From an uncultured Oscillospiraceae bacterium (GTDB taxonomy: Bacteria; Bacillota; Clostridia; Oscillospirales; Oscillospiraceae), in assembly GCA_964435375.1 (NCBI GenBank), contig CAYSYK010000004.1, forward strand, positions 3,954-67,953: DNA of 64,000 nucleotides, written 5' to 3'. A program made the translations under genes and the position numbers. Each line of letters starts with the position of its first letter. Position 1 is the first letter of the stretch. This document shows positions 1,295-20,021 of this stretch, one piece after another. Under the pieces are notes generated by a model. The model did not search any database. It saw only the letters and a program-made list of their open reading frames with translations, and was not told the origin of the DNA.

Positions 1295-2248
1295 TCATTT
1301 CCGCACCCGATAATTCCGGGGCGAAACGCCATAGGTCCCTCGGAAAAGCCGATGGAAATAGCTGATGTTTTCATAGCCGACCGAGGCGGCAATGTCGTCA
1401 ATATTCCAGTTGGTCGTGCGCAGCAGAAACGCCGCCTGTGTCAATCGCTTTTCCTGCACCAGCTCCGTGTAGGTTTTCCCGGTCTGTCGATGTATCTCCC
1501 GGGAAAGGGTCGCGATGTCCAGATGGAGCATTTTCGCCACTTCCGTCAGGCTGCCGTCGGCATAGTGCGTTTCGATATAGCGCAAGACCGTCAAAATCAC
1601 GCTCTCGCGGGGCGGTTGCCACAGCTTGTCCGTGTAATTCATCAGTTCCAGAAGCAGCAGTGACATGGTCGTCTGGCTGATGTTGCGCCGATTGTGTTTC
1701 TTTTCCAGCAGAACAAGGATCAGATTTTCGATCAGGTTCTGGATGGAAATATCGTCCGCCGTCTGAAAATACAGGTAGCTGTTGCCTTGTTTCTGTCCCA
1801 GCAGGCAATCAAGAATGAATCGGCGCAGGGGAGAGGCATCCTCCTGAATGGCCGACAGCGGCTCGTTAAAAAATTCCGGCAAGACGATAAAATTTACCGT
1901 AATATCGGTCGCACCCGCTTTGCACACCTCGTGTCGGGCGGACTGCCCCAGAAACAGCAGTTCCCCCTCTTTGAGGCGGATGTGCCGCCCGTTGACAATG
2001 TGCGTCGTCTCGCCCATGCAGGAATAGATCACTTCCACATAGTCGTGCGTGTGCTCCGGGAAGTGGATAAAGCGGGTGTGCGGGCGCATCGTGATGAGTT
2101 TGCCGTCCGCCAGCAGCTTTTTGCTGTTGATGACGTTGGTGGTGCCGGTCATGTAAATATCTCTGTCGATGGAGGGACTTCCGTCGAGCAAAACCCGTTC
2201 CTCGGGTGTGATCGGCTGCAGGCGTGCGAGAATACCGGGATCAATCAT
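1295..2248 (-). CDS. AraC-family transcriptional regulator (cupin sensor plus HTH)
   Basis: N-terminal HTHDYVEVIY cupin motif; C-terminal IAASVGYENISYFHRLFRGTYGVSPRNYR AraC HTH. Confidence 0.92.
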   Translation of the reverse strand: MIDPGILARLQPITPEERVLLDGSPSIDRDIYMTGTTNVINSKKLLADGKLITMRPHTRFIHFPEHTHDYVEVIYSCMGETTHIVNGRHIRLKEGELLFLGQSARHEVCKAGATDITVNFIVLPEFFNEPLSAIQEDASPLRRFILDCLLGQKQGNSYLYFQTADDISIQNLIENLILVLLEKKHNRRNISQTTMSLLLLELMNYTDKLWQPPRESVILTVLRYIETHYADGSLTEVAKMLHLDIATLSREIHRQTGKTYTELVQEKRLTQAAFLLRTTNWNIDDIAASVGYENISYFHRLFRGTYGVSPRNYRVRK

Positions 2249-2535: not shown

Positions 2536-2649
2536 TTTAACATCGGCATGGAATGCCCACGGCGCAACGCGGGAAGCTCGCTCACCAACGGAGATTTTGC
2601 TCCGTTCAGGCCGTGTGCAGCAAGCCAAAAGAAAAGAAAGGAAGTCACT

Positions 2650-3738
2650 ATGAAAACGATGAAACGTATTGTGGCGGTAACAATGCTCTTGAGCATTTTG
2701 CTCGTCTGCGCGGCCGGTTGCACGCCCGAGGACGATACTACCACCACCGCCCCGAACGCCGACGGGAGTTCCGGCGTAGCCGATACGACCACAGGATCGG
2801 GTCAGCCCGCACACGTCCACACCTACAGTGCGCTGATCTATGAAGAGGATGCCACCTGCTCCGAAGCCGGTTGCAAATCCCATTACACCTGCTTTGGTTG
2901 TGACGCGGTCTTCGATGAAGAGAAGAAGGAAGTTTCTTCCGAAAGTCTGGTCATCTCCGCACTGGGGCACGATTTTGACGATGCCTACAAATGCACCCGC
3001 TGCAAGCTGAAGCTGGGCGAAGTCGTGGAAGCCATCGCCGCCCTGCCCGACGGCAACAACATCACGCTCTCCGCTCTGTCCGCCATCGGCGATGCCATCA
3101 GCAAATACAACAAGCTGGACGATGCCGCGAAAGACGCTCTGAACAATCTGACCGATAAGGTCGCGCATCTTCTGGCGTTGAGCGAACAAATCGAGGGCAT
3201 TGAGGTCGGCGTTATGGCAAAATACCTGTCCGATGCCGGCCAGAACCAGACTCTGACAGACGTGAAGTGGACCGACGGTGTCGACGAGATCTACGGCAAC
3301 TACAAGCAGATCGACTACAGTAGCTGGCAGTGGGTCAATCTCAAGTACAACAGCTCCACCCGTCCCGAGGGCAAAACGGTCGTCATGTTCGTCTACAACG
3401 CTGGCGATGCCGATGTCGAGCTGACTTGGGGCGCGGTCGATCCCGCCAAGACTGGTTGTATCTTCAACATCGGTGTCGGCTGGACAAGCGGCGACGGGGA
3501 AGACCCCGATGTCGGCCATCAGGTGCTGAAAGCAAACTCGTGGAACATGATTACGATCAAATGGGACGCCATCTACGGCTTTAATGCCAACGTCATGACC
3601 ACCGGCCATTATGCCGATGCCGAAAACAAAGCCGCCGTGAACGGCTGGAAATTCTCCGACGTATACATGATGGAAGCGGACAAACTCCCGCTGATGCAGC
3701 AAATCATCGACAACAGCGTCGGCACTTCCGCAGAATAA
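2650..3738 (+). CDS. Modular surface lipoprotein 1 (His/Cys module, helical spacer, putative beta-sandwich domain)
   Basis: Start moved to ATG 2650. Lipobox VCAAG-C, Thr-rich linker, HVH...ATC...HYTCFGC...GH...CTRC module. Paralogous to the next gene. Confidence 0.75.
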   Translation: MKTMKRIVAVTMLLSILLVCAAGCTPEDDTTTTAPNADGSSGVADTTTGSGQPAHVHTYSALIYEEDATCSEAGCKSHYTCFGCDAVFDEEKKEVSSESLVISALGHDFDDAYKCTRCKLKLGEVVEAIAALPDGNNITLSALSAIGDAISKYNKLDDAAKDALNNLTDKVAHLLALSEQIEGIEVGVMAKYLSDAGQNQTLTDVKWTDGVDEIYGNYKQIDYSSWQWVNLKYNSSTRPEGKTVVMFVYNAGDADVELTWGAVDPAKTGCIFNIGVGWTSGDGEDPDVGHQVLKANSWNMITIKWDAIYGFNANVMTTGHYADAENKAAVNGWKFSDVYMMEADKLPLMQQIIDNSVGTSAE

Positions 3739-3819: not shown

Positions 3820-6297
3820 ATGAAACGCAACACGAAAAACACGCCGGTAAAATTGCTGTGTCTGGCGATGGTGATCGCCGCCTGCGCACTGGCAATGGTT
3901 GCCTGCACTCCCGAAGGCGCAAGCACGAACGGAACGACGACCGGTGAACCCACCGGCACCCAGCAACAGCCGCACGAGCACGCATACGTCTGGCACGAAG
4001 AAGTCGCCGCCACCTGCACGGCCAACGGCACGAAGGGACATTTCACCTGTGAGTGCGGCAAGTATTTCGATGCAGACAAGAATGAAATCACGGCAGACGA
4101 TCTGGCCATCGTCGGCGGACACAATTTCGTAAACTATGTCTGCGCAGGTTGTAACACCGACCTGAGCGCACTGGCCGCAAAAATCGATGCTCTGCCCGAA
4201 AGTAACTATTCCTTGGCCGACATCCCCGTGATCAACGCCGTCAAGAAAGAATTTGACGCGCTGGACGATGCATTCAAAGCCGTGCTTACCAATTCCGCAC
4301 GCCTTGACAATGCCGTATCCGCCATTTCCGGCGTTTGGGTAGCGGCAGGTGCCGACACACTGGCCAGCGGTGGTCAGTGCGACCAGAGCCTTGTGGGATT
4401 TGCCGCAACCGCATCCGAAGACGAAGGTCTGGGCACCGTGGTGACCATCGGCTATGATGCATGGCAGTGGGCAAACTACCGCCACAACAGCACCGAAAAG
4501 ATTGCCGTCGGCACGAAGGTTGCCTTGGGCGTGTACAATGCCTCCGGCGAGGCAAAGGGCCTGCACTGGGGCGACGGCGCGACGGTTTACACCAACGCCG
4601 ATCAGGTCATTTTGCAGCCCGGCTGGAACCTGATCACCTTCACTTGGGAATGGGACGAGAACGCGATCGGCGAAAATTACGTGATCGCCACGCATATTTA
4701 TACGCTGTCCCCCGTCGGCAACGGCGAGAACATGAACGGCTGGAAATTCACCGCGCTGTTCGCTTACAGCGACGAAGCCGCCTTCAAGGCACTGGCAAGC
4801 AACTCCGTAGACGTTGAAATCCAGCCCGCGCACGTTCACGAGTACATCCACCACGACAAAGTCGATGAAACCTGCACCGTAGACGGTGTCGCAGAGCACT
4901 ACACCTGCGCGTGCGGCAAGTATTTCGATGTCAACAAGAATCCCACCACACAAGCCGCACTTGCGATCGCGCACGGACACAAGTTCGTCGATTCCGTCTG
5001 CTCCGGCTGCGGGCTGAATGTCGATGCCATCATCGAAAGCATTGAAAATCTGAGTCTGGCAAATCTGGCCGACGTGATCGCGCAGTACACCGCACTGCCC
5101 GAGGCGGACAAGGCGCTGGTCACAAACGGCTACAAGCTGGCCGCCCTCGAAAATCTGATCGTTGTCGGCGCGGACACGCTGGCTAACTGGGGCGACTGCG
5201 GCTCGGCCGTCACGTTCACCACCGCCTCCGATGACGTTTACGGCGCATACGGCGAGCTGAACCACACCGCAAGCTGGGCATCCGTGAAATACGCCTCGAA
5301 CCTCTTGCTGCAGGGACTGAACAAAGACCTCGTCGTCTACATCTACAACCCCACCGACGCCAACGTCGATATCGCATTCGGCTATCTCAACGACTCCCAC
5401 CCCGAGAGCATTTTCCAAGGCGCTTGCTACAAATATCAGACTTTGAACGCAAACTCTTGGACAAAGGTTGTCATCGAGTGGTCCGATGCTTATAATTACT
5501 ACATGGAACTCCAGCACATGCTGATGATCGCCTCCACCGGCAGCGCTTGCACCGCCGGTAACGGCATCAATCTGACCGGCTTCAAGATGTCCTCCATGTA
5601 CATCGTCGATGACGCCGCCGCGCTGGATGTTCTGACCGGCGACAGCGATGCCGTGCAGGCCGTGATCAGCGCGATCGACACACTGACGCTTGCAAACATC
5701 GAAGCGAATCTGCAGGGCGTGCTGGCGCAGTATAACGCGCTGTCCGATACGGACAAGGCTCTCGTCACCAACGCAGGCAAGCTGACCGCTCTGGCCAACA
5801 TTCAGGTCGTCGGCGCGGACACGCTGGCCAACTGGGGCGACTGCGGCTCGGCCGTCACGTTCACCACCGCCTCCGATGACGTTTACGGCGCATACGGCGA
5901 GCTGAACCACACCGCAAGCTGGGCATCCGTGAAATACGCCTCGAACCTCTTGCTGCAGGGACTGAACAAAGACCTCGTCGTCTACATCTACAACCCCACC
6001 GACGCCAACGTCGATATCGCATTCGGCTATCTCAACGACTCCCACCCCGAGAGCATTTTCCAAGGCGCTTGCTACAAATATCAGACTTTGAACGCAAACT
6101 CTTGGACAAAGGTTGTCATCGAGTGGTCCGATGCTTATAATTACTACATGGAACTCCAGCACATGCTGATGATCGCCTCCACCGGCAGCGCTTGCACCGC
6201 CGGTAACGGCATCAATCTGACCGGCTTCAAGATGTCCTCCATGTACATCGTCGACGACGCCGCCGCGCTGGACGCTCTGATTCCCGCCGCAGAATAA
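3820..6297 (+). CDS. Modular surface lipoprotein 2 (two His/Cys modules, three helical spacers, three beta-rich domains)
   Basis: AGGAGG RBS, lipobox AMVA-C, internally repeated modules, last two domains identical in protein sequence. Confidence 0.8.
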   Translation: MKRNTKNTPVKLLCLAMVIAACALAMVACTPEGASTNGTTTGEPTGTQQQPHEHAYVWHEEVAATCTANGTKGHFTCECGKYFDADKNEITADDLAIVGGHNFVNYVCAGCNTDLSALAAKIDALPESNYSLADIPVINAVKKEFDALDDAFKAVLTNSARLDNAVSAISGVWVAAGADTLASGGQCDQSLVGFAATASEDEGLGTVVTIGYDAWQWANYRHNSTEKIAVGTKVALGVYNASGEAKGLHWGDGATVYTNADQVILQPGWNLITFTWEWDENAIGENYVIATHIYTLSPVGNGENMNGWKFTALFAYSDEAAFKALASNSVDVEIQPAHVHEYIHHDKVDETCTVDGVAEHYTCACGKYFDVNKNPTTQAALAIAHGHKFVDSVCSGCGLNVDAIIESIENLSLANLADVIAQYTALPEADKALVTNGYKLAALENLIVVGADTLANWGDCGSAVTFTTASDDVYGAYGELNHTASWASVKYASNLLLQGLNKDLVVYIYNPTDANVDIAFGYLNDSHPESIFQGACYKYQTLNANSWTKVVIEWSDAYNYYMELQHMLMIASTGSACTAGNGINLTGFKMSSMYIVDDAAALDVLTGDSDAVQAVISAIDTLTLANIEANLQGVLAQYNALSDTDKALVTNAGKLTALANIQVVGADTLANWGDCGSAVTFTTASDDVYGAYGELNHTASWASVKYASNLLLQGLNKDLVVYIYNPTDANVDIAFGYLNDSHPESIFQGACYKYQTLNANSWTKVVIEWSDAYNYYMELQHMLMIASTGSACTAGNGINLTGFKMSSMYIVDDAAALDALIPAAE
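5164..6272 (+). repeat. Intragenic direct repeat, 464 bp x2 (5164-5627 and 5809-6272)
   Basis: By-eye comparison found only two synonymous differences (5184 T vs 5829 C; 5610 T vs 6255 C). Period 645 bp = 215 codons. Confidence 0.92.
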
Positions 6298-6342
6298 TCT
6301 ACCGTTTTCGGAACAGAGAAGTTTCCATTTGGGAGATTTTCC

Positions 6343-7575
6343 GTGAAAAAATTGAGATTTCTTTCCCTGTGCATAGCAGTTCTGCTGCTATGCACAGGAT
6401 GTTCCGTCAATTCCCAACAGACGGGATCCACCGCGGGATCTACCGTTTCGGAAGATCCCGTTTTGACGGAGCAATGCGTCGATTTTGTTGTCGAGGTCGA
6501 AGCGGGATCCGATCCCGTCATCCTGCATCTGACCGACCCGCAAATCATTGATGCCGCGCAAAAGCGAGCGCCCGACCGTCTCGGCGCAGCCGCCGACGAA
6601 TACTGGGCGACGGATAAAGCCGAGCAGCGTTGCTACGGCTATATTCGCGAAACGATCGAGCAAACAAACCCCGACCTGATTCTCCTGACGGGGGATCTCG
6701 TTTACGGCGAGTTTGACGACAGCGGAACGGCTTTGTGTTCTTTCATCGCATTTATGGACGGCTTTCGCATCCCGTGGGCGCCGGTTTTCGGCAATCACGA
6801 CAACGAAAGCAACATGGGCGCAGATTGGCAGTGCGCGCAGTTGGAAAAATCCGAGTACTGCCTGTTCAAGCAGCGGCAGTTGACGGGAAACGGCAACTAT
6901 ACCGTCGGCATTTCACAGGGCGGTGTCCTCACACGGGTATTTTTCATGCTGGACTCCAACGGCTGCTCCGCCGCCAGTGAAGCATCGCTGGCCAACCAAC
7001 ACACCAAAACAACCGTCGGTTTCGGAAACGATCAAATCGACTGGTACACGCAGACGGCTTTGCAAATTCGCGAAAATCATCCGCAGGCAAAGCTCTCCTT
7101 CGCCTTTCATATTCAGCCGGCAATTTTTCGAACCGCTTTCGAAAAGTACGGTTTTGTCAACGACGACGCGGAAATGCTCCTGAATCCGATCGACATTTCC
7201 GCGCACCCCGAGAAAACGGACGGAGATTTCGGATACTTGGGCAGATGCCTGAAAGACCCGTGGGATGCCAACAATCGAGTGTGGAAGAGCATGGTCGCTT
7301 TGGGTGTCGATTCCGTTTTTGTCGGCCATGAACACTGCAACAATGCGAGCGTGGTTTACAAAGGCGTGCGCTTGCAGTACGGCATGAAAAGCAGCACCTA
7401 TGACCGTGCAAATTTCCGAAACCGTGACGGCACGATCGTCGGCACATCGCTGGGCGATGCGGACGGCAGCCGTGAACCTTTGGTCGGCGGCACGGTGATC
7501 CCCCTGTCTTCATCGGACGGCAGCATTCTGCAGCCGTATATTTACATTTGTGCAAACGTCGACACCAAGCAATAA
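6343..7575 (+). CDS. Lipoprotein, calcineurin-like metallophosphoesterase
   Basis: GTG start, lipobox LCTG-C. Motifs HLTDPQ, LTGDL, FGNHD, FHI and GHEH. Confidence 0.85.
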   Translation: MKKLRFLSLCIAVLLLCTGCSVNSQQTGSTAGSTVSEDPVLTEQCVDFVVEVEAGSDPVILHLTDPQIIDAAQKRAPDRLGAAADEYWATDKAEQRCYGYIRETIEQTNPDLILLTGDLVYGEFDDSGTALCSFIAFMDGFRIPWAPVFGNHDNESNMGADWQCAQLEKSEYCLFKQRQLTGNGNYTVGISQGGVLTRVFFMLDSNGCSAASEASLANQHTKTTVGFGNDQIDWYTQTALQIRENHPQAKLSFAFHIQPAIFRTAFEKYGFVNDDAEMLLNPIDISAHPEKTDGDFGYLGRCLKDPWDANNRVWKSMVALGVDSVFVGHEHCNNASVVYKGVRLQYGMKSSTYDRANFRNRDGTIVGTSLGDADGSREPLVGGTVIPLSSSDGSILQPYIYICANVDTKQ

Positions 7576-7593
7576 CAGAAACGAGGTAACGCT

Positions 7594-9330
7594 ATGAAAA
7601 CAAGAAATTTGATCGCAGGTCTGCTGGCAGCCGTGATGCTGCTGTGCGTCGGCTGTTCCGGCAGCGGCACAACCACCGGCGGCAACGACATCCCCGGTAA
7701 CACCGGCGATAACGCAGGCAACGGCGAATACATCAGTGCCAAGCCCTTGGACATCAGCCGGCTTGGGGACGGATACAACCCCAACTATATGCCCGATGCC
7801 GCCTCCATCAAGCAGAGAAGCGGCACCATCCACGTCGTGCTTGACTTTGACGGCACGCAGGTCGGCTGGCAGAAAGTGGCCGAGGAATACGAGCGCCTGC
7901 ACAGCGGCAAGGTCGACGTCGTAATCAATACCGACTATTCCGGCACCATGTACGGCGAAAAAATCATCAGCGAGCTGCAAAACACCAAGACCGATTGGGA
8001 CATCGTTCAGGGCAACCTCGGCAGCTATCACACCAACGCCGCCTGTATGCACATCTCCTCCATTTCCGACCAAAACAACGAATACTGCGGTGCAAACGTA
8101 AAATGGAACGACGTTCTGGAAAACATTGCGTTCGAATCCATCGAAAACCACTCCACCGACACATATATCATCAACTCCGAAACCATGCAAACCTGCTGGT
8201 TCGTCAACAAAACCGCTCTGGACGAGGCCGCCGCGCTGGGCTATCGAAACTCCGACGGCGAGGCCGCCACGCCGAACACATGGGATGATCTTATGAGCCT
8301 GTGCGCCTATATGCAGCAGGCCGGCTACAATAACCCCCTCGGAATCACCCTGTCCGAAGGCTCCATCCGCACCGCGCAGTTCTCTTGGCTGACGCGTATC
8401 TACGGCGACTATTACTATCGCCAGTACTACCCCTACGTCATGAACTCCGAATATTGGGACGACTACGATCCCGAAGACACCGCGCCCGAGACCGTGGACG
8501 GCTACGGCGTGAAATTCTGCAAGATCGCGAACCTGATGCTGGACAAAAACTCCACTCTCACCGACGACGGTTTTGTCGGTGTCGGCAGCGACATTTACAA
8601 AGATTATCTGTCCAACTTCTATAAAATGCGTGACTATATCATCGCCGATGCGAGCGCGACCGAATTTGCCGCCCTGCGCGACCAGTTCCGTCTGCAATCC
8701 AAAGGCAAAAAGAGCGCGCAGATCATCCTCGATTACGTCGGCTACGGCTGCCTGTACAGCACCTCCGATGCCATCGAGCTGGATTATTTCGACTATCCCG
8801 TGATGGAAAGCGACTATGTTGACTCCGACACGCTTACCAGAGACATCGGCGGCAACGGCGGCTTCCTGTCCATCGTCAAGCACGTCGGCGACAAGGCACA
8901 GAACGAGCTGAACATCGACTTCATGAAATTCTTCATGTCCCCCTACGGTCAGACCATCTACTATCAAGGTCTGGCGGAAGGCAATGTCGCGCCCGCAGGT
9001 CAGACCACCGTCAAGCACGTGGTCATGCCCCAGCAGTGGAGCGCATTCTACAACAAAGTCGGCAAAAAGGTCGAATTTAACGGCAACGTCGACGGCAACA
9101 TCTTCATTTCTTGGGGCGTCCGCTTCTTCGGCGACTACGAGAACACCGACGATATGATCGGCGAAATCTGGAAAAAGCTGCTGCTTCGCGGCATCGGCGC
9201 GAAGGATGAGATCACGGTCGACGAGTTCTGCACAAGCTGGTACGATGCCTGCTTCAAAGACTACAAGCTCAAGTGCATCGACTGCCAGTGGCCCGAAAAT
9301 ATGTACCTGAATCCCGCACTTCCTTACTAA
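7594..9330 (+). CDS. Carbohydrate ABC transporter solute-binding lipoprotein
   Basis: Lipobox LCVG-C. WFVNKTALDEA...TPNTWDDLMSLC segment typical of family-1 SBPs. Precedes two permeases. Confidence 0.78.
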   Translation: MKTRNLIAGLLAAVMLLCVGCSGSGTTTGGNDIPGNTGDNAGNGEYISAKPLDISRLGDGYNPNYMPDAASIKQRSGTIHVVLDFDGTQVGWQKVAEEYERLHSGKVDVVINTDYSGTMYGEKIISELQNTKTDWDIVQGNLGSYHTNAACMHISSISDQNNEYCGANVKWNDVLENIAFESIENHSTDTYIINSETMQTCWFVNKTALDEAAALGYRNSDGEAATPNTWDDLMSLCAYMQQAGYNNPLGITLSEGSIRTAQFSWLTRIYGDYYYRQYYPYVMNSEYWDDYDPEDTAPETVDGYGVKFCKIANLMLDKNSTLTDDGFVGVGSDIYKDYLSNFYKMRDYIIADASATEFAALRDQFRLQSKGKKSAQIILDYVGYGCLYSTSDAIELDYFDYPVMESDYVDSDTLTRDIGGNGGFLSIVKHVGDKAQNELNIDFMKFFMSPYGQTIYYQGLAEGNVAPAGQTTVKHVVMPQQWSAFYNKVGKKVEFNGNVDGNIFISWGVRFFGDYENTDDMIGEIWKKLLLRGIGAKDEITVDEFCTSWYDACFKDYKLKCIDCQWPENMYLNPALPY

Positions 9331-9357
9331 GACCAACTTTCCGAAGGTATTGTGGCT

Positions 9358-11886
9358 ATGAGTAACGTAACGACAAATCCTGCCCCGATCCGGGGCAGGA
9401 AAAAAATAAAAAGTACCATCCTGATCGTAGGCGTACTGACGTTCATCTTTGCTCTGATGACGGCCGGCAGCGCATGGATGATGCCCCGCAAGACCGTTCA
9501 CACGGACGTTTCCGGCGAGGAAATCACCGCCTCCGCACTTTTTTACGGAAAACGCGGTGAGGACTATTTCATGGCGAGCGGCACCACCTTCGAGCGCCGC
9601 AGTCTGTCCGGCGACGAGCAGATTCAATCCGTAAATTTTCTTTCCGACATCAATCGCTATGTGCAGCAGGAAAACGTGCAATTGCTTGAGGGCAGTCTGC
9701 TCCAGTTTTACTTCGTGTACGCCAACAAAAATACCGGCGGAGATAATCTGGTCATCATTGACAATCTCGGAAACCTGTTTAAATACACGGAAGGGGAGAA
9801 CGGTCTGGAATTTTCCTCGGACTGCCTGATTCGAGATTCCGCGACGCAACTGGTCAAGATGATCTCCGACGGCGACGAGCTGTACGTTCTTTCCAACTAT
9901 AACAACCGACTTTTGCTGCAATGCTACGATCTTAACAATCTTTCCGCAGGCGTGCAAAACAGCCGCTATATCTGGTCGGTGGACAGTGTCGGTTCGCAGA
10001 CGAGCCGGATTTCCCCCTTGACCTACAAAATCAAGCTGTGGGAATTTGTCGCCGAGGGAGATTACCTGTATCTGGCAACCGATCTGGGACTTTACAAGCT
10101 GAACAAAAACTTTTACGACTATCAGGACGTGAAATTTCTGGACGCGGCAGACAATGCCTACGTCACCTATCTGCGCGAAACGCTGAAAAAAGCCGATGCC
10201 GCAGTCAAGGCTGAGAACGGCCTGACCGACGAAATCATCGACGGCATGACGCAGGCGCAGATGGCGAAAATTTTCAAAACCGTCACGGGCATCAAAACCT
10301 CCGAAGCAAAAGCGAATGCCGCGGAAGTGTTCGTGGAGGAGCACCCGTGGTGCGTGGATTACGATGCCTCTTCCGCAACCCTGACCGTGAAAAACGAGTG
10401 TCTTGACTCCGAGGCGATCTCCGTTGTAAAGGGCAGTATGTATGTCGTTTTGCGCGGCATGGCATATTCTCCCGTCAACAAAATGTTCTATATCGCCAAC
10501 AGCTACGACGATACGATCTGCTGTGCCTCTCTGGAGGATGTCAACCGCATCGGCCTGACGGACAGCAAAACCTTCGGCGATATCTGCAAAACACTCGACC
10601 TCTCGTTCGGCGGGAAGAAATTCCACGAATCCAAGAGCCTCGAGTGGAACGAAAACGCAAATACCCTGTACGTGGCATTTGCCAGCGACAACAAGCTCAG
10701 CATTCTCGATATTAACGGCGACAAAGCGAAGCTCGCCTATCATTTTGAAGCGGGTTTCGACATTCAGGAATATGTCGGCGACGAACACAACGACAAAATC
10801 TATTTCCTGAACGTCGAAAAATCCACCGATCTGGCAAACAACGTTACCTTGCGCAACACCGTTACCTGCCTCAATCCCCAACGCAGCGAAAATACCGGTA
10901 CAACACGCACCTTGCTGATCGTAAGTGCCGTCATGACGGCCGTGACCGCCATCATTCTGGTATTTGCATTCCGCCTGTACAAAAATCCCGTTGCCGCGCA
11001 GAAAGCAGTCGTGATCGGGAAAGATCTGCGCAAGCACAGAAGAACGTATTTCGCGCTGATTCCCTTTGTCGTGCTGCTGATCATGTTCTGCTATTACGAG
11101 GCGTTCGGCTCGATCGTGCTGTCGTTCTTCGATTACACGCGCGACAAGCCAACGATGAACTGGAACAGCTTCGCGAACTACATCAAAGTATTCAACGACG
11201 ATGATTTCCTGCTGGCCGTCGGCAACACCCTGTTTTTCTTGGTGTTCGACATCATCATCGCCATCGCACCGCCGTTCATTTTCGCATTTTTCCTGTCGGT
11301 CATGCGCAGCAAGAAATATTCCGGCTTCGTGCGCACCGCATTGCTGATTCCCGGTATCATTCCGGGTGTCGCCTCCATGCTGATCTGGCGAGTTGGTATC
11401 TTCGGCGAAACGGGTGTGCTGAACACGCTGCTGTCTTTCTTCGGAAAAGGCTCCGTCGCATGGCTGGAAAATACCTCCGTCTCCCGCTGGTCACTGCTGC
11501 TGATGAGTTTCCCGTTCATCGGGCAATACCTCGTGTTCTACGGTGCCATCATGAATATCCCCAAAGATTATTATGAAGCCGCGGAACTGGACGGCATTTC
11601 GGTTTTCCGCCGTTTCATCTCCATCGACCTGCCGCTGTGCGTGCCGCAGATCGTATACGTTCTGATCACGACCATGATCAATTCCGCGCAGAACTATGCA
11701 AGAACTTATATGCTCCGCAGCTCGGGTACCGTCACCCTCTCGGAGAAAATGTATAAGGCCATGACCTCCAATGGCGCAAACTACGGCCTGTCGTCAGCAT
11801 ACGCCATGGTGATCTTTGCACTTCTGCTCGTAGCGCTGATCATCAATTTCAGAATGCAGAAAAAAAGCTATATGGGAGAGTCCTGA
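9358..11886 (+). CDS. CUT1 ABC permease (MalF/UgpA-like) with a large N-terminal extracellular domain
   Basis: C-terminal ~290 aa with six hydrophobic segments and EAA loop IPKDYYEAAELDG, preceded by TM, ~475 aa hydrophilic domain, TM. Confidence 0.85.
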   Translation: MSNVTTNPAPIRGRKKIKSTILIVGVLTFIFALMTAGSAWMMPRKTVHTDVSGEEITASALFYGKRGEDYFMASGTTFERRSLSGDEQIQSVNFLSDINRYVQQENVQLLEGSLLQFYFVYANKNTGGDNLVIIDNLGNLFKYTEGENGLEFSSDCLIRDSATQLVKMISDGDELYVLSNYNNRLLLQCYDLNNLSAGVQNSRYIWSVDSVGSQTSRISPLTYKIKLWEFVAEGDYLYLATDLGLYKLNKNFYDYQDVKFLDAADNAYVTYLRETLKKADAAVKAENGLTDEIIDGMTQAQMAKIFKTVTGIKTSEAKANAAEVFVEEHPWCVDYDASSATLTVKNECLDSEAISVVKGSMYVVLRGMAYSPVNKMFYIANSYDDTICCASLEDVNRIGLTDSKTFGDICKTLDLSFGGKKFHESKSLEWNENANTLYVAFASDNKLSILDINGDKAKLAYHFEAGFDIQEYVGDEHNDKIYFLNVEKSTDLANNVTLRNTVTCLNPQRSENTGTTRTLLIVSAVMTAVTAIILVFAFRLYKNPVAAQKAVVIGKDLRKHRRTYFALIPFVVLLIMFCYYEAFGSIVLSFFDYTRDKPTMNWNSFANYIKVFNDDDFLLAVGNTLFFLVFDIIIAIAPPFIFAFFLSVMRSKKYSGFVRTALLIPGIIPGVASMLIWRVGIFGETGVLNTLLSFFGKGSVAWLENTSVSRWSLLLMSFPFIGQYLVFYGAIMNIPKDYYEAAELDGISVFRRFISIDLPLCVPQIVYVLITTMINSAQNYARTYMLRSSGTVTLSEKMYKAMTSNGANYGLSSAYAMVIFALLLVALIINFRMQKKSYMGES

Positions 11887-12758
11887 TGATGAAAAATAAA
11901 ATTAAACGGGGAAAGCTGCGTTATTCGCACGAGAAACGGCCGTTTCAGGCGTTTATCACCGTCGTGATCACGCTGTGTATGCTCTTTTCCTTCCTTGCAC
12001 TGTTTATTACGGTCGTCAACTCCATGAAAACCGATAATGAAGTTGCATTTAACATCTTTGCTCTTCCGTCATGGGAAAATCTGTTCGACGCCATTGCGCA
12101 TAACTTCTCAAGTGCATGGGCGGAAATCGGCCCGTATTTCTTCCGTTCCGTCATTACGTCGCTCATCGGCTCCATCGGCGCGGCGATCATCGGTGCGATC
12201 TTGGCGTACATCCTTGTTTTCAAGGATTTCTATTTCAAAAATGTCGTTTTCATGCTGTTCATCGCCGTCATGCTGATTCCCTCGATCATCGGCTATCCGG
12301 TGCTGCTGCCGCTGATGCGCGACACATTCAATCTCGGCGATTCACTGGCCGGTTATGTCATCCCCACCATCGGCGGCTGCCAGGTAGGTGCGATGTTCCT
12401 GTTCCGTACGTTCTTCAGCCAGCAACCCCGTGCGATGTACGAAAGTGCTAAAATGGACGGTGCAAACGACGTGTATCTGTTCTGCTATTTCACCGTGCCG
12501 CTGTCCTTGCCCATCATTCTCTATTTCGCCGTGGGCATTTTCACGAATATGTACAATGATTATCTGTGGTCAAGCCTGATCCTCGATTCGAATCTGACGC
12601 TGATGCCGAAGATGCTGTCCTTGGTCGACTCCAATACGCTTCAGTACGGCTCCATGTATGCCATGTACTGCATCTCGTCCGTGCCGATGATCGTCATTGC
12701 CATCATTTCCGCGAAGTATTTCCGCAGCGGCGAGTTTGCCTCCGGTATGAAACTGTGA
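11886..12758 (+). CDS. CUT1 ABC permease (MalG-like)
   Basis: Hydrophobic segments, EAA loop QPRAMYESAKMDGAND; start overlaps the upstream stop. Confidence 0.9.
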   Translation: MMKNKIKRGKLRYSHEKRPFQAFITVVITLCMLFSFLALFITVVNSMKTDNEVAFNIFALPSWENLFDAIAHNFSSAWAEIGPYFFRSVITSLIGSIGAAIIGAILAYILVFKDFYFKNVVFMLFIAVMLIPSIIGYPVLLPLMRDTFNLGDSLAGYVIPTIGGCQVGAMFLFRTFFSQQPRAMYESAKMDGANDVYLFCYFTVPLSLPIILYFAVGIFTNMYNDYLWSSLILDSNLTLMPKMLSLVDSNTLQYGSMYAMYCISSVPMIVIAIISAKYFRSGEFASGMKL

Positions 12759-12779: not shown

Positions 12780-14387
12780 ATGAAAAACATCAGCAAAAAA
12801 CTGTTTTCTCTGGCCATCGCCTGCACACTGTGCCTATCCGCCGTCCCGGGATGCACCCCCGGGCAAGAATCCACCCCCGACGGCGGCACGACATCCGGCG
12901 CGGATGCCACCGAGCCGATCGTGTTTGAAACCGTCTACACGGACGGCAGTGCAAAATCTCTTCTGCGCTACAACGCAGCCGTACCCGAAGAAAACGGCGT
13001 TGTCAGCTACGAGATCAAGCGCGACGTCGGAAATAAAAATTATATGCGCATCGCGCTCGAAACCGACGTAAACCTCGTCGGCTATATCTACTACACGAAT
13101 GCGCAGGATGCCACGCAAAGCCACAAAGAAAAATTCTTCATTGAGGCAGGTTCCACGGAATTTACAACCTTCCTTGACGCATTCCGCCACGGCGCATTTG
13201 CGCCTTATGAAAAAACGATCGGAAAAATCACGCTGCAAAACGTGGACGACACGAAATCCGGAACCGTCACGCTCAAAAGCGTCGATTTCTCCGATCGGAC
13301 TTACGACCCCGACGTTACCATGTACATTGACGACGGCGTTCTGCGCGTGGGTACATCGCTCGGCTTCGGCGGTGCCATCACCTATGTGGCGCGCATTAAT
13401 GCCAATATCAAAGAGTACATTGACGTCAACGGTAACACCTGCATTGGTCCGCTGGAGGATAGCTCCGATGTCGACCTGATCTCCGAAGAGGCGAATCTTG
13501 TCAACATTTACGACTTGGGGCGGGAAATTCAGCAGTCGTTCTACTGGCCGGTAAAGCCACAGCACGGCTATGTGCCCACCAGTGACCAGAAATACCCGGG
13601 CGATCTGAACTACAATCCCATTCAGTGCGGAAGTGCCGGCAGCGTCGGCCCGCAGATTGTCGATTATCGCTGTTCCGAGGATGAAATTTACGTCAAATCC
13701 TACGGCGCGGACTGGTATCTAGTCAATCAGGTGGACGCGACCTACTATGAAACATGGCTCCGTTTCGGCATTGACGGTACGTTGGTGGTGAAAAACAGAG
13801 TCACAAACTTCGGCCAGTTCATCGACACCGATCGTCTGGAATTTGTCAATCAGGAATCTCCCGCGTTTTATTCGGTATACCCGCTGGACTATTTCTACGC
13901 GGAAACCACCGACGGCACGATTTTTGACAACGAGCTCACCGCCGTCGGCAACGGAAGCGTCAAATCCTCCGCCACCGATACGGCAAGCAGCGGATACTGG
14001 TACAGCCTGAGCGCCGAAAAAATCAAAAACAACTGGATCGCCTTCGTGACGGAAAACAAATTCGGACTGGGCATCTACAATCCGTCCGCCGACTGCTTTG
14101 TCGCATCCAGCGGCACCCCCACAACCAAGTACATGAGCAACCAGATAACGCACCCGGATTTTTATGTCGATGACTATTCCGGCTACATTCCGAGCTGCTA
14201 CACAAACAACTACGGGTATCTGAACACGTCGATTCGCTGCAAAATGACGGATTTTGTCCCGATGGAATTTTCCTACGCGCTGTACGCAGGTACGGTGCAG
14301 GAGATAAAGTCGGCATTCCGTCAGCTCGAAGTCGGCAACGTGATGGAGCCCGCCAAAATCACGTGGCCGCACGAAAACGTGCAGTGA
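12780..14387 (+). CDS. Uncharacterised lipoprotein 3
   Basis: Lipobox AVPG-C; aromatic and beta-strand-rich sequence; no family confidently recognised. Confidence 0.7.
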   Translation: MKNISKKLFSLAIACTLCLSAVPGCTPGQESTPDGGTTSGADATEPIVFETVYTDGSAKSLLRYNAAVPEENGVVSYEIKRDVGNKNYMRIALETDVNLVGYIYYTNAQDATQSHKEKFFIEAGSTEFTTFLDAFRHGAFAPYEKTIGKITLQNVDDTKSGTVTLKSVDFSDRTYDPDVTMYIDDGVLRVGTSLGFGGAITYVARINANIKEYIDVNGNTCIGPLEDSSDVDLISEEANLVNIYDLGREIQQSFYWPVKPQHGYVPTSDQKYPGDLNYNPIQCGSAGSVGPQIVDYRCSEDEIYVKSYGADWYLVNQVDATYYETWLRFGIDGTLVVKNRVTNFGQFIDTDRLEFVNQESPAFYSVYPLDYFYAETTDGTIFDNELTAVGNGSVKSSATDTASSGYWYSLSAEKIKNNWIAFVTENKFGLGIYNPSADCFVASSGTPTTKYMSNQITHPDFYVDDYSGYIPSCYTNNYGYLNTSIRCKMTDFVPMEFSYALYAGTVQEIKSAFRQLEVGNVMEPAKITWPHENVQ

Positions 14388-17745: not shown

Positions 17746-20021
17746 ATCAATATGATATTGCCTACGACACCGCCATTCACAACTGGGATGAAGCTTTGCC
17801 CATCGGCAACGGCAAAATGGGTTGCCTGCTTTACGGCGACGGGCCGATCCGTTTTTCCTTGGATCGGGTGGACTTGTGGGACACGCGCCCTCATCCGCAC
17901 ACGCAGGAAGCGGGCTTTTCCTATCGGAATCTGCTCAGACTTGCCAAAAGCGGGAGCGAAACGGACTGGCAGGAGTATTTGCGGCTGTTTGACATCATCT
18001 CGTCGGACAAGGCATATCCCTCCAAGCTGACCGCCGGACGGCTGGAACTGGATTTCGGCGTTCGGACGGAGCAGATCCGATCCCATGTGGATATTCGCCG
18101 TGCCGTGGCAACGATGGAGCTGTGCTCGCCGTGCCGTGCGCGTATTGAGGCGTTCGCCTCCGCGACGGAATTTATCGGCGTGGCACGGGTTTTCGGCACC
18201 TACCGTCTGGGATTGCACATTCCCGACTACATTTCCGGTGACGACACGGGAAGCTGCACGAATCGCTCCGGCATCGGCGCGGTCGACGTTGATGCCTGCC
18301 TGCACTACCCCCGTGCCGACATCGCGACCGACGGCGCGTTTACCTATTATCGGCAGAAAACGTTGTCCGATTTTGAGTACGGCGTTGTCGTATTTGAAAA
18401 AGAAGTTGACGATTGTCACGAGCTGTATTTTACCGTGGTGACCAATCGCGACGGCGACGACGATATGATCCGCGCCGCCGAGGCACATTTGCAATCCGTA
18501 GCCGCGCGCGGCTACGACACACTGAAGCGGGAACACATCGCATGGTGGGAACGCTACTGGGGCAAATCCGCCATCCGCATCGGCGACCGGCTGTTGGAAA
18601 AGACATATTATCGCGCTTACTACCTGTTCGCCTCCTGTTCCCGCGCGGGATTTTATCCCATGCCCCTGCAGGGTGTCTGGACGGCGGATAACGACAGTTT
18701 GCCGCCATGGAAAGGCGATTATCATCACGACACCAACACCCAGCTTTCTTATCAATCCTTCCTGAAAGCCAACCGGCTGGAAGAGGGCAGGGTATTTTTG
18801 GACTATCTTTGGTCGATGAAGGCAACGTTTGAGAACTTTGCCGAGTCCTTTTTCGGCGTGCGCGGTCTTTTGCTGCCGTCGTGCTCCACGCTGGACGGCA
18901 AACCCATCGGCGGCTGGCCGCAGTATTCCTTTTCCCCGACGATGAGCATCTGGGCGGCGCAGAGCTTTGATGAATACTACCGTTATACCGCGGATCGCGA
19001 TTTTCTGTCGGAGCGGGCTTATCCGTTCCTTGGCGAAGTGGAGCAGGCAATTTCCGGACTTTTGGAAGAAAAAGACGGCAAGCTGTATCTGCCCCTGTCC
19101 TCCTCGCCCGAAATCTTCGACACAACCCCGCAGGCATACCTTACGCCGAATTCCAATTTTGACCTCGCCCTGTTGCGTTATCTGTATCAGACGCTCGGCG
19201 GCTATGCCGACGAGCTGGCGCAAGCGGAAAAAGCGCGCTATTATCGCCAAATGCTGGCACAACTCGACGACATTGCCGTTTCCGGCGACGGCGTCGTCAT
19301 GCTCGATCGCACGCAGACACTGCGTCAATCGCATCGCCATTTTTCCCATCTGATGTGCCTGTATCCGCTGCACCTGATCAATTACGACACAGAGCAGCAC
19401 AAACGCATCTACGAAGCGTCGCTGTTGGACATTGAATTGTACGGCACGGGAATGTGGGTCGGTTTCTCTTTCGCCATGTGCGCGCAGATCTATGCCATGG
19501 CCTGCAAAGGAAACGCCGCCTATGAAAAACTGCGGCAATTTGCCAACGGATTCGTCGCGGACAACGGATTCCACCTGAACGGCGATTTTAAAAACTACGG
19601 CTATTCCACATTCCATTATCGTCCGTTCACGTTGGAAAGTCTGTTCGGCTACTGCGATGCCTTGCAGGAAATGCTTTTGCAGGAGCATCAGGGCTACATT
19701 CATTTGTTCCCCGCAATCGCGCAGGATTGGGAGAATCGGGAGCTGTCGTTTGAAAATCTGCGCAGTTACGGCGGCATTTTGGTCAGCGCAACGAAAAAGG
19801 GAACGCAGGTTCGCGCCACGCTTTGCGCGCAGAAGCCGACCTCCGTTCGCATAAAAAATGTATTTCACAGTCCCTTGCTGTGCGTCCGCGGAGAATCGAG
19901 CAGCCGAATCGTTTCGGAGCAGGACGGTTTCTTTGATCTTACGCTGGAACGCGGCACGACGACCCTTACGCCGCACGGCACGGAACACACACCCACGACC
20001 GAAAACAGGAGAAACCCGTGA
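17721..20021 (+). CDS. GH95-like alpha-L-fucosidase/L-galactosidase (cytoplasmic)
   Basis: WDEALPIGNGKMG, LQGVW, DYHHDTN, SSSPE and SHRHFSHLMCLYP correspond to GH95 motifs. Confidence 0.75.
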   Translation: MQECYQNLNQYDIAYDTAIHNWDEALPIGNGKMGCLLYGDGPIRFSLDRVDLWDTRPHPHTQEAGFSYRNLLRLAKSGSETDWQEYLRLFDIISSDKAYPSKLTAGRLELDFGVRTEQIRSHVDIRRAVATMELCSPCRARIEAFASATEFIGVARVFGTYRLGLHIPDYISGDDTGSCTNRSGIGAVDVDACLHYPRADIATDGAFTYYRQKTLSDFEYGVVVFEKEVDDCHELYFTVVTNRDGDDDMIRAAEAHLQSVAARGYDTLKREHIAWWERYWGKSAIRIGDRLLEKTYYRAYYLFASCSRAGFYPMPLQGVWTADNDSLPPWKGDYHHDTNTQLSYQSFLKANRLEEGRVFLDYLWSMKATFENFAESFFGVRGLLLPSCSTLDGKPIGGWPQYSFSPTMSIWAAQSFDEYYRYTADRDFLSERAYPFLGEVEQAISGLLEEKDGKLYLPLSSSPEIFDTTPQAYLTPNSNFDLALLRYLYQTLGGYADELAQAEKARYYRQMLAQLDDIAVSGDGVVMLDRTQTLRQSHRHFSHLMCLYPLHLINYDTEQHKRIYEASLLDIELYGTGMWVGFSFAMCAQIYAMACKGNAAYEKLRQFANGFVADNGFHLNGDFKNYGYSTFHYRPFTLESLFGYCDALQEMLLQEHQGYIHLFPAIAQDWENRELSFENLRSYGGILVSATKKGTQVRATLCAQKPTSVRIKNVFHSPLLCVRGESSSRIVSEQDGFFDLTLERGTTTLTPHGTEHTPTTENRRNP

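Follow-up and report, generated by a model that had tools for sequence, protein, structure and literature searches.

A sugar ABC importer permease with a predicted extracellular beta-propeller in an uncultured Oscillospiraceae bacterium

Gut Firmicutes import glycan fragments chiefly through ABC sugar importers, and to our knowledge the textbook architecture of these importers includes no extracellular permease domain apart from the MalF P2 loop. A 64,000-nucleotide stretch of DNA from an uncultured Oscillospiraceae bacterium, which we call the window, encodes a permease-like protein in which a large hydrophilic domain precedes the membrane core. The original prediction, made from the sequence alone, took this domain for an extracellular beta-propeller with a helical insert and proposed a built-in receptor, a clamp for the substrate-binding protein (SBP), or an enzyme at the transporter mouth. 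We asked whether the fusion is genuine, what fold the domain has and which of these roles fits it best.

The mechanical open reading frame of the long permease spans 9352..11886 (+) and encodes 844 aa from a GTG at 9352. The ATG at 9358 is most likely the true start, as the homologues begin with MS... in the alignment and a GAAGG Shine–Dalgarno sequence lies 9 nt upstream (Table 1). A 1,175-aa antisense frame (7510–11037, minus strand) lacks support and lies opposite two conserved genes; it was treated as spurious. We derived the topology from hydropathy and the positive-inside rule. Residues 1–22 contain five K/R and no D/E, and the N-terminus is therefore predicted to be cytoplasmic, whereas the hydrophilic residues 42–520 are acidic (45 K/R vs. 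68 D/E) and were for that reason placed outside. Hydropathy puts the start of TM2 at nt 10912, where it had been predicted, and finds six more TMs after the linker. The protein would thus run from a cytoplasmic N-terminus through TM1, a 479-aa ectodomain, TM2 and a basic linker into a six-TM core. Hydropathy and charge distribution together agree with the predicted extracellular rather than cytoplasmic location of the domain, and we regard the overall order of TM1, propeller, TM2 and core as nearly certain.

Table 1. Coordinates of the long permease, its predicted parts and the neighboring cassette genes in the window.
Feature	Residues	Coordinates	Strand	Basis
Cognate lipoprotein SBP of a divergent family, 578 aa		7594..9330	+	SBP_bac_8, E 1.5e-7
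Long permease gene, 842 aa		9358..11886	+	ATG 9358 start by homologue alignment and RBS
TM1 (predicted)	23–41	9418..9474	+	hydropathy 2.27, positive-inside count; basic RGRKKIK precedes
Predicted extracellular seven-bladed NHL/YncE-like beta-propeller	45–520	9484..10911	+	AlphaFold2, Foldseek, NHLRC2 profile match
Helical insert (~70 aa), C–D loop of predicted blade 4	262–330	10135..10341	+	DSSP helices, AlphaFold2 model
TM2 (predicted), bringing the chain back to the cytoplasm	521–539	10912..10968	+	hydropathy 2.71
Basic cytoplasmic linker (predicted)	540–566	10969..11049	+	8 K/R, 1 D/E
Six-TM BPD_transp_1 core, CUT1-type (MalF/UgpA/AlgM1-like) importer subunit		11050..11883	+	Pfam, NCBIfam, PDB
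EAA motif EAAELDGISVFRRFISIDLP	742–761	11575–11634	+	read from sequence
Second permease, UgpE/MalG type, 290 aa		11886..12758	+	PF00528, E 7.9e-12; UgpE/GlcU matches
Lipoprotein, 535 aa, frequent but not universal cassette companion		12780..14387	+	neighbor comparison

A permease core follows the ectodomain in the same frame, as had been stated, with matches to PF00528 and to importer TMDs of known structure. The Pfam match (residues 643–831, E 6.7e-5) scores 23.1 bits, just under the gathering score of 26.4 bits, and six scanned members of the family reach 28.5–40.6 bits. The NCBIfam models GlcT, MalF and UgpA match the core in part, UgpA positions 13–288 aligning to residues 564–836 and MalF positions 266–517 to residues 606–838. 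The PDB matches were AlgM1 (E 1.3e-16), the sugar permease 7cad_A (8.5e-15) and MalF (1.4e-12). In such importers the EAA motif, EAA-x3-G-x9-I-x-LP, lies in a cytoplasmic loop and couples the permease to the ATPase; E742, G748 and P761 of the motif are invariant in 122 relatives of the long permease. Together with a six-TM core, both termini on the inside and adjacent genes for a second TMD and an SBP, these matches identify the gene product as the first membrane subunit of a sugar ABC importer of type I, CUT1-like and dependent on a binding protein. No ATPase was found among the ORFs scanned in the locus, and four OB_MalK-containing frames on other contigs of the genome are candidate MalK-type ATPases.

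The fusion is not chimeric. Two different studies supply contigs, of 19.9 kb and 14.8 kb, that span positions 9300–12000 with no differences and no gaps, and ten full-length homologues of 838–847 aa, with ectodomains 42–98% identical, come from independent assemblies. A search for proteins with the same fusion found 203 relatives (candidates of 464–1,477 aa), and of the 120 listed three are short and all others measure 719–925 aa. The long forms in this list show 48–99% core identity, and ordinary permeases of ~300 aa on long contigs show 27–31% core identity to the window protein. Short core matches at 45% identity or more were rejected as genuine short forms: their contigs are small (~0.7–6 kb) and the core lies too near the N-terminus to leave room for an ectodomain, for which reasons we read them as gene fragments. 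The long permeases thus appear as a distinct clade, sharply separated from the ordinary ones, and even the ectodomains of its distant subclades are homologous (hhalign probability 99.1%, E 1e-18). The database record of one clade member gives it no more than the label "sugar ABC transporter permease." Relatives bear the labels Subdoligranulum and Faecalimonas. Literature searches on ABC permeases fused to extracellular propellers, on MalF P2 and extra extracellular domains and on DUF5711 found no description of such a fusion, and by this measure the clade is undescribed and unstudied.

AlphaFold2 modeling of residues 45–520 from an eight-sequence alignment gave a mean pLDDT of 84.5 and a pTM of 0.84. 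The model is all beta, with 32 strands that we assigned to seven four-stranded blades, and blade 7, the last, is completed by pairing with the N-terminal strand, a velcro closure. At E ≤ 0.001, Foldseek found 657 matches in the PDB; virtually all of the 50 listed are beta-propeller proteins, of the generic WD40/YncE/BamB type; E. coli YncE was among the best of those listed (E 4e-8, TM score 0.64 on the target). A single-sequence search of the PDB with the ectodomain gave nothing significant, and the profile alone reached NHL blades, matching two of those of NHLRC2 (E 1e-4). The weak tail matches of a profile search were NHL, lactonase and YncE propellers. We found no Pfam family for the ectodomain, nor a Pfam NHL match in it at E ≤ 0.01. 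The AlphaFold2 model and the Foldseek matches show the ectodomain to be a seven-bladed NHL/YncE-like beta-propeller. The expectation of a propeller fold was thereby borne out by the very modeling and structure search that had been proposed for it, and every blade-like string listed in the original prediction maps to the B–C strand pair of a predicted blade. The supposed helical insert likewise corresponds to helices assigned by DSSP on the model (domain residues 218–286). It is clade-specific, with an occupancy of 0.61 in 122 sequences, and is absent from the relatives of 719–747 aa, where hhalign leaves a gap. The last strand ends beside the N-terminal strand, and with the strand order usual for propellers both termini would lie on the bottom face. 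A full-length AlphaFold2 model from 11 sequences had a mean pLDDT of 53.7, and below 50 in the core, and could not be used to position the propeller with respect to the pore.

The domain, insert included, differs by 49 synonymous and 9 nonsynonymous changes (dN/dS 0.046), a ratio showing purifying selection. Together with the independent contigs and the long homologues, this ratio of 0.05 excludes an assembly or annotation artefact, which we weighed jointly with the built-in receptor discussed below. The ectodomain positions kept in at least 60% of the 122 long permeases are Gly, Tyr, Phe, Leu, Ile and Pro together with three Asp (76–80%); Ser, Asn and Thr add a single position apiece at 61–66%. 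No polar residue of the ectodomain is invariant across the 122 family members, the three Asp being the best conserved. None of the RNA runs holds the ectodomain sequence.

This pattern bears on the proposal that the domain is an enzyme, a glycoside hydrolase, lyase or esterase trimming the substrate at the transporter mouth. Seven-bladed propellers include the rhamnose-related CAZymes GH145 and PL42 and the ulvan lyases PL24 and PL25, and the cassette is set in a rhamnose/fucose glycan locus (GH78-like, GH95, GH106 and RhaA) that has no obvious secreted depolymerase; its rhamnose-centered genes, GH78-like, GH106 and RhaA, would suit such an enzyme. However, conservation limited to structural positions and three Asp that are partly conserved argues against catalysis, no CAZyme or hydrolase family was matched in Pfam, NCBIfam or the PDB profile search, and the listed Foldseek matches are of the generic type named above. 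We therefore disfavor this part of the original prediction and consider a tethered enzyme quite unlikely.

The neighboring genes bear on the proposal of a built-in receptor. In all nine loci examined, a binding lipoprotein of ~560–600 aa, from the same divergent SBP family each time, is encoded directly upstream and a second permease of ~290 aa downstream; in the window, the start of the latter overlaps the stop codon of the long permease. These two are the only universal partners of the long permease in the loci examined. The SBP of the window is 42–46% identical to those of distant clade members, and profile search found no relative of it in the PDB. The 535-aa lipoprotein, which has no Pfam or NCBIfam match, shares 39% identity with a 550-aa protein of locus L012, and loci L002, L005 and L013 have neighbors of the same size. 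Surface lipoproteins or Flg_new proteins adjoin the cassette in a set that varies by locus, and an AraC regulator lies near it in most loci. A receptor built into the permease, taking the place of the SBP or duplicating it, has precedent in the fused receptors of other ABC importers such as GlnPQ and OpuA, but a dedicated SBP gene stands directly upstream in 9/9 loci and the fold of the ectodomain in AlphaFold2 and Foldseek is not that of a Venus-flytrap SBP. This part of the prediction did not hold up, and such a receptor is extremely unlikely.

The reading that fits best is a form of the clamp. In this clade, the extra N-terminal TM pair displays the seven-bladed propeller on the outer face of the membrane. 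With both ends leaving the bottom face and entering TM1 and TM2, the propeller would be held directly above the membrane beside the pore, its top face, the usual ligand-binding face of propellers, pointing outward. There it may act as a noncatalytic tethered platform that holds the large lipoprotein SBP, and possibly also the incoming rhamnose- or fucose-containing oligosaccharide, at the transporter mouth. Tethering would make loaded SBP locally more concentrated in the open wall space of a Gram-positive cell, and a shared MalK/MsmX-type ATPase whose gene lies elsewhere in the genome would provide the ATP. The role would be like that of the MalF P2 loop, but of independent origin, at another site and with another fold. 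The retention of the fusion in the long forms, with no genuine short form accepted among the core matches, speaks for docking or capture. Also in its favor are the predicted outside location of the ectodomain, the confident propeller model with propellers alone as listed structural neighbors, the place of both termini, the homology of ectodomains across distant subclades, the purifying selection, the comparable rarity of the ectodomain and SBP families in the sampled genomes and the MalK-type candidates on other contigs. The SBP family next to the long permease in 9/9 loci supports it further, keeping 42–46% identity to the window's SBP where the ectodomains, in the alignment of the diverse set, share only 16–29% with that of the window. 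On the other side, the ectodomain diverges faster than the SBP (about 20% vs. about 45% identity between subclades), which a tight conserved protein–protein interface does not obviously predict, and co-occurrence with the SBP is expected of any component of one operon. The orientation of the faces, the lack of catalysis and the role itself are all inferred; the propeller may be a docking or capture platform for the SBP, the glycan or both, a reading to which we give a probability of roughly 45%.

The same divergence also bears on a lectin-like alternative, in which the outward top face would bind poly- or oligosaccharide directly and feed it to the SBP or the pore, the propeller not binding the SBP itself. 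Within the window's subclade (42–98% identity), many polar and aromatic residues on the predicted B–C and D–A loops, which form the top face, are invariant (examples are DNxGNLFK, SNxNNR, YDD, SFxG..FH and FEAGFDIQ). The ectodomain also differs strongly between loci with different glycosidases (GH78-like, GH95 and GH106 here vs. GH36 in L012), and its fast evolution would fit a changing ligand specificity. Several of the top-face motifs are, however, ordinary structural turn motifs of NHL-type blades, so that their conservation is not necessarily the sign of a binding site, Pfam and NCBIfam gave no match to a CBM or lectin family, and the SBP, the usual determinant of specificity, is more conserved than the propeller. 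We hold this alternative possible but rather doubtful.

Under another alternative, the propeller would have no part in the transport step but would gather locus-encoded surface lipoproteins or Flg_new-repeat proteins around the transporter, touch the cell wall or sense the substrate for regulation. Several such proteins stand beside the cassette, propellers such as BamB, itself among the listed Foldseek matches, are protein scaffolds, and the AraC regulator would suit a part in sensing. Yet the accessory surface proteins change from locus to locus where the propeller is constant, and permanent fusion to a permease argues for a role in transport, making a scaffold unlikely.

A docking or capture platform could form part of a larger pattern. 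The ectodomain family turned up in a single genome, the window's own, whether 301 genomes of the order or 399 of the class were sampled, and is therefore too rare for co-occurrence statistics. In the same 399 Clostridia genomes, the SBP family is comparably rare, present in two, and the additional genome also has a propeller-bearing permease beside its SBP gene. A distant long permease, in genome G512, matches DUF5711 (E 1.5e-11), and its propeller has no detectable relation to the window's ectodomain (hhalign probability 1.5%). DUF5711 (PF18975), which has no match in the window protein, was accordingly rejected as the ectodomain's family. DUF5711 occurs mostly as a stand-alone protein of ~370–430 aa and is present in 223 of 300 Clostridia genomes. 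In this distant relative, an unrelated-looking DUF5711/PQQ-type propeller thus occupies the same TM1–TM2 site beside a homologous SBP, which would mean that a propeller at the mouth was selected repeatedly or was kept through extreme divergence. A tentative extension, plausible but one that we would sooner bet against, is that the long permease, its dedicated ~580-aa SBP and the second permease work in Gram-positive gut bacteria as one obligate machine for capture and import, in which the propeller is an indispensable third element on the outside, serving either as a docking clamp or as a station for glycan hand-over. If true, a propeller at the mouth would point to a general, undescribed principle of SBP-dependent import by cells lacking a periplasm.

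The clade is coherent: it comprises hundreds of metagenomic sequences, its permease core is only about 30% identical to those of ordinary CUT1 permeases, it has an SBP family of its own with no solved relative, and Pfam has no model for its ectodomain. Should the propeller dock the SBP or the glycan, it would reveal how capture stays coupled to translocation in bacteria that lack a periplasm and would offer a handle for predicting what uncultured gut Clostridia import; at a minimum, the clade warrants a new domain family and a correction of its annotation.

Among known systems, the likeness in the propeller fold itself is to NHLRC2 and E. coli YncE, which share the blade motif but have neither the helical insert nor the placement within a membrane hairpin of a transporter, and whose functions give no direct clue to that of the window's propeller. 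The closest solved relatives of the core are AlgM1 of AlgM1M2SS-AlgQ2 from Sphingomonas sp. A1 and the mycobacterial 7cad_A, likewise subunits of importers that take up oligosaccharides by means of a MalK-type ATPase and an SBP, either periplasmic or a lipoprotein, but they are ordinary permeases of ~300 aa with neither the N-terminal hairpin nor an ectodomain. GlnPQ and OpuA also tether an extracytoplasmic domain to a type I TMD, at high local concentration and in a Gram-positive envelope; there, fused Venus-flytrap SBPs replace the free SBP, whereas the window has a propeller and a separate SBP gene. The comparison originally drawn with the MalF P2 loop stands insofar as both permeases carry a large domain on the outside, and is otherwise one of analogy. 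In E. coli, P2 is an Ig-like domain of about 180 aa that docks the binding protein and lies between MalF TM3 and TM4, the pair of helices with which the conserved core begins. MalF belongs to the same superfamily of type I importer TMDs and likewise has eight TM helices in total, two of them extra and N-terminal, and a large extracytoplasmic domain. In the window protein, the 479-aa insert lies between the added TM1 and TM2, ahead of the whole six-TM core, and the core loop equivalent to P2 (residues 586–626) is only 41 aa long. The ectodomain has no MalF_P2 match in Pfam and folds in the model as a propeller, not as an Ig-like beta-sandwich, and the two domains are related neither in sequence nor in fold.

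The longest frame for the permease runs from 9352 to 11886 on the plus strand (844 aa), and residues are numbered here from 9352. Because homologues begin at the second in-frame start (MS...) and the ATG at 9358 has a GAAGG ribosome-binding site 9 nt upstream, the gene most likely spans 9358-11886 and encodes 842 aa. A Kyte-Doolittle scan and loop charge counts gave the layout listed in the table, and under the positive-inside rule the charge distribution predicts that the 479-aa hydrophilic stretch lies outside the cell. The limits originally predicted for the inserted domain, 9484-10911 (residues 45-520), agree with this layout. Shortly past the start codon, in codons ~9-17, window positions 9378-9400 form a GC-rich inverted repeat with perfect 10-bp arms (TCCTGCCCCG-atc-CGGGGCAGGA), which could influence how translation starts or is coupled to the solute-binding protein (SBP) gene upstream. 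A 1175-aa stop-free frame antisense to the SBP and permease genes (7510-11037, minus strand) was judged to be a by-product of codon composition and not a gene.

Features of the long permease, its surroundings in the window and the G512 locus
Feature	Location	Strand	Remarks
N-terminus of long permease	residues 1-22		basic: 5 K/R, 0 D/E
TM1	residues 23-41		Kyte-Doolittle scan
Acidic hydrophilic stretch	residues 42-520		479 aa; 45 K/R, 68 D/E
TM2	residues 521-539		Kyte-Doolittle scan
Linker after TM2	residues 540-566		very basic, 8 K/R
Six further helices	after linker		carry EAA coupling motif EAAELDGISVFRRFISIDLP, residues 742-761
AraC regulator	window 1295-2248	minus	divergent; adjoins repeat-domain lipoprotein genes
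Pair of genes for lipoproteins containing internal domain repeats	window 2548-3738, 3820-6297		upstream of transporter; no Pfam match
578-aa lipoprotein SBP	window 7594-9330		divergent family; partial SBP_bac_8 match alone
535-aa lipoprotein	window 12780-14387		no Pfam or NCBIfam match
665-aa protein	window 20018-22015		between GH95 and GH106 genes; no Pfam match
G512 SBP	L017 (G512:C8) 4755-6431
G512 permease	L017 (G512:C8) 6517-8502
G512 second permease	L017 (G512:C8) 8521-9402

Residues 564-836 align to positions 13-288 of the 295-position UgpA model, almost its full length, and residues 606-838 to MalF positions 266-517, the part beyond the periplasmic loop P2. Among solved structures in the PDB, the core matched AlgM1 best (1.3e-16), then the mycobacterial sugar permease 7cad_A (8.5e-15) and MalF (1.4e-12). 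The MalF-type core expected behind the domain is thus present, and the alignments and solved relatives identify the protein, at the level of sequence, as a CUT1-type "F/A" subunit with an added TM hairpin in front.

Two separate studies yielded Logan contigs (19.9 and 14.8 kb) that span 9300-12000 and are identical to the window there. A word-based search querying the ectodomain returned ten relatives at full length (838-847 aa; ectodomain identity 42-98%). Both results support a true fusion over a chimeric assembly. An ectodomain profile matched only 26 of 1.84 billion representatives, nearly all of them permeases of 800-925 aa that carry the domain at the same place near the N-terminus, or fragments of such permeases; no free-standing secreted form appeared in that search. 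A core search limited to long candidates gave 203 relatives, and the 120 listed were 719-925 aa long except for three short sequences, with core identities of 48-99%. Sampled subclades of 732-815 aa carry ectodomains homologous to that of the window (hhalign 99.1%, E 1e-18), the 732-747-aa forms missing the helical insert. In a core search limited to normal lengths, every short match of at least 45% identity lay on a contig of ~0.7-6 kb and was rejected as a fragment, and for true permeases of ~295-319 aa core identity was no more than 27-31%. Given this gap, the long permeases form a clade of their own that has never lost the ectodomain. A relative at 98% identity differs from the window in the ectodomain by 49 synonymous and 9 nonsynonymous changes (dN/dS 0.046; 0.03 in the helical insert alone and 0.009 in the core), consistent with strong selection.

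Even with a broad profile, the family is sporadic: it was found in one of 301 genomes sampled from the window's order and one of 399 sampled from its class. Those relatives that bear a name are MAGs labelled Faecalimonas and Subdoligranulum, and the runs holding the window sequence are faecal or gut metagenomes; the window's own genome (1.82 Mb, 68 contigs) has one copy. One clade member is labelled merely "sugar ABC transporter permease", and no paper describing this fusion was found in the literature collection searched. The fusion is real, conserved and unstudied.

Pfam and NCBIfam scans of the long permease matched only its core, and no Pfam family was found for the ectodomain. An AlphaFold2 model of residues 45-520 from an 8-sequence alignment (mean pLDDT 84.5, pTM 0.84) has 32 beta-strands. 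We assign these to seven blades of four strands each, with domain residues 3-6 at the N-terminus supplying the outer strand of blade 7 in a "velcro" closure. Foldseek returned 657 PDB matches at E<=0.001, and the best 50 are essentially all propeller proteins, including YncE (E 4e-8, TM 0.64 normalised on the target). The ectodomain profile also matched two NHL blades of human NHLRC2 (E 1e-4), and propellers of NHL, lactonase and YncE type were the weakest matches of the large profile search. The domain thus has a seven-bladed NHL/YncE-like fold, yet lies below the reach of the Pfam NHL model. The original prediction of a propeller with a helical insert holds in the model, the insert occupying domain residues 218-286 (protein 262-330) and the blade-like strings (DELYVLSN, DYLYLATDLGLYKL, KMFYIAN, NANTLYVAF, DKIYFLN) all falling on B-C strand pairs of blades 3-7.

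In all nine loci compared (the window, L002, L005, L008, L009, L010, L012, L013 and L014), a ~570-600-aa SBP-like lipoprotein gene precedes the long permease gene, and a second permease of 284-299 aa comes after it. Most loci also have an AraC regulator close to this cassette, and often a GFO/IDH/MocA oxidoreductase and surface proteins. Downstream of the cassette, the 535-aa lipoprotein recurs in several of the loci: a 550-aa protein of L012 is 39% identical to it, L002, L005 and L013 have genes of the same size, and L010 has none at that position. The window cassette sits within a rhamnose/fucose locus comprising the AraC regulator, repeat-domain lipoproteins, a metallophosphoesterase lipoprotein, SBP, two permeases and the 535-aa lipoprotein, together with a GFO-type oxidoreductase, GH78-like, GH95, the 665-aa protein, GH106, RhaA and a class II aldolase. 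In L005 a gene sized like that of the 665-aa protein follows a rhamnosidase-like gene. No ATPase family matched among the scanned ORFs of the window locus; four frames with a MalK-type OB domain are on other contigs of the genome, a location typical of the shared MsmX-type ATPases of Firmicutes. The SBPs of the distant loci L008, L009, L010 and L012 are 42-48% identical to the window's, and ectodomains of comparably distant clade members just 16-29%. By profile, the SBP family had no relative in the PDB.

The SBP family is as rare as the ectodomain, occurring in two of the 399 Clostridia genomes sampled, in both beside a propeller-bearing permease. In the second genome, G512, a 661-aa permease directly follows an SBP homologous to the window's (E 1e-57) and has the same TM1-ectodomain-TM2-core layout. 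Its ectodomain is a ~300-aa propeller of DUF5711/PQQ_2 type, for which hhalign detected no relatedness to the window's (probability 1.5%). DUF5711 (PF18975) is a very widespread propeller, present in 223 of 300 sampled Clostridia genomes, mostly as one ~370-430-aa frame per genome; the genome of the window (90% complete) gave no match to it. Upstream in the G512 locus lies a DUF5722 protein.

We favour, at a probability of about 0.45, a propeller that would act, covalently fixed beside the pore, as a tethered docking or capture platform holding the large lipoprotein SBP, and perhaps an oligosaccharide, at the transporter mouth. This reading is preferred because the SBP and second permease are the sole universal partners and the domain is fixed by the pore and strongly selected. 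The original prediction had also allowed a built-in receptor or an enzyme; with the SBP gene in 9/9 loci, the propeller very probably does not replace the receptor. Mean consensus frequency among 122 long permeases is 0.68 in the core vs 0.37 in the ectodomain, and the ectodomain positions at least 60% kept are Gly, Tyr, Phe, Leu, Ile and Pro, with three Asp (76-80%) and one Ser, one Asn and one Thr (61-66%). This pattern would fit a structural or binding module rather than a conserved active site, and no enzyme family matched in the Pfam and NCBIfam scans or was prominent among the 50 Foldseek matches listed, which makes a tethered enzyme improbable. From canonical propeller strand order, we infer that the chain enters and leaves at the bottom face, which should therefore face the membrane, the top facing away; the helical insert sits in the C-D loop of blade 4, which would place it away from the anchor, at the rim or on the bottom side. 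The full-length AlphaFold2 model (pLDDT 53.7) is too poor for checking this orientation. Direct lectin-like glycan capture, the main rival, draws support from polar and aromatic residues that the subclade keeps invariant in predicted loops of the top face. Several of them, though, form part of the usual turn motifs of NHL blades, and we consider this reading less likely; a scaffold, wall or sensing role seems less probable still.

The role proposed for this docking platform is analogous to that of MalF P2, and to that extent the comparison with MalF stands. The ectodomain, however, is not at the P2 position: the P2-equivalent loop of the long permease is only 41 aa, and on both counts tested the ectodomain was not a P2-type domain. 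Nor is the long permease of the kind of the GlnPQ/OpuA SBD fusions. It tested as a type I importer TMD, and type I importers whose permease bears an extracytoplasmic accessory domain are a known arrangement, of which the long permease is a variant.
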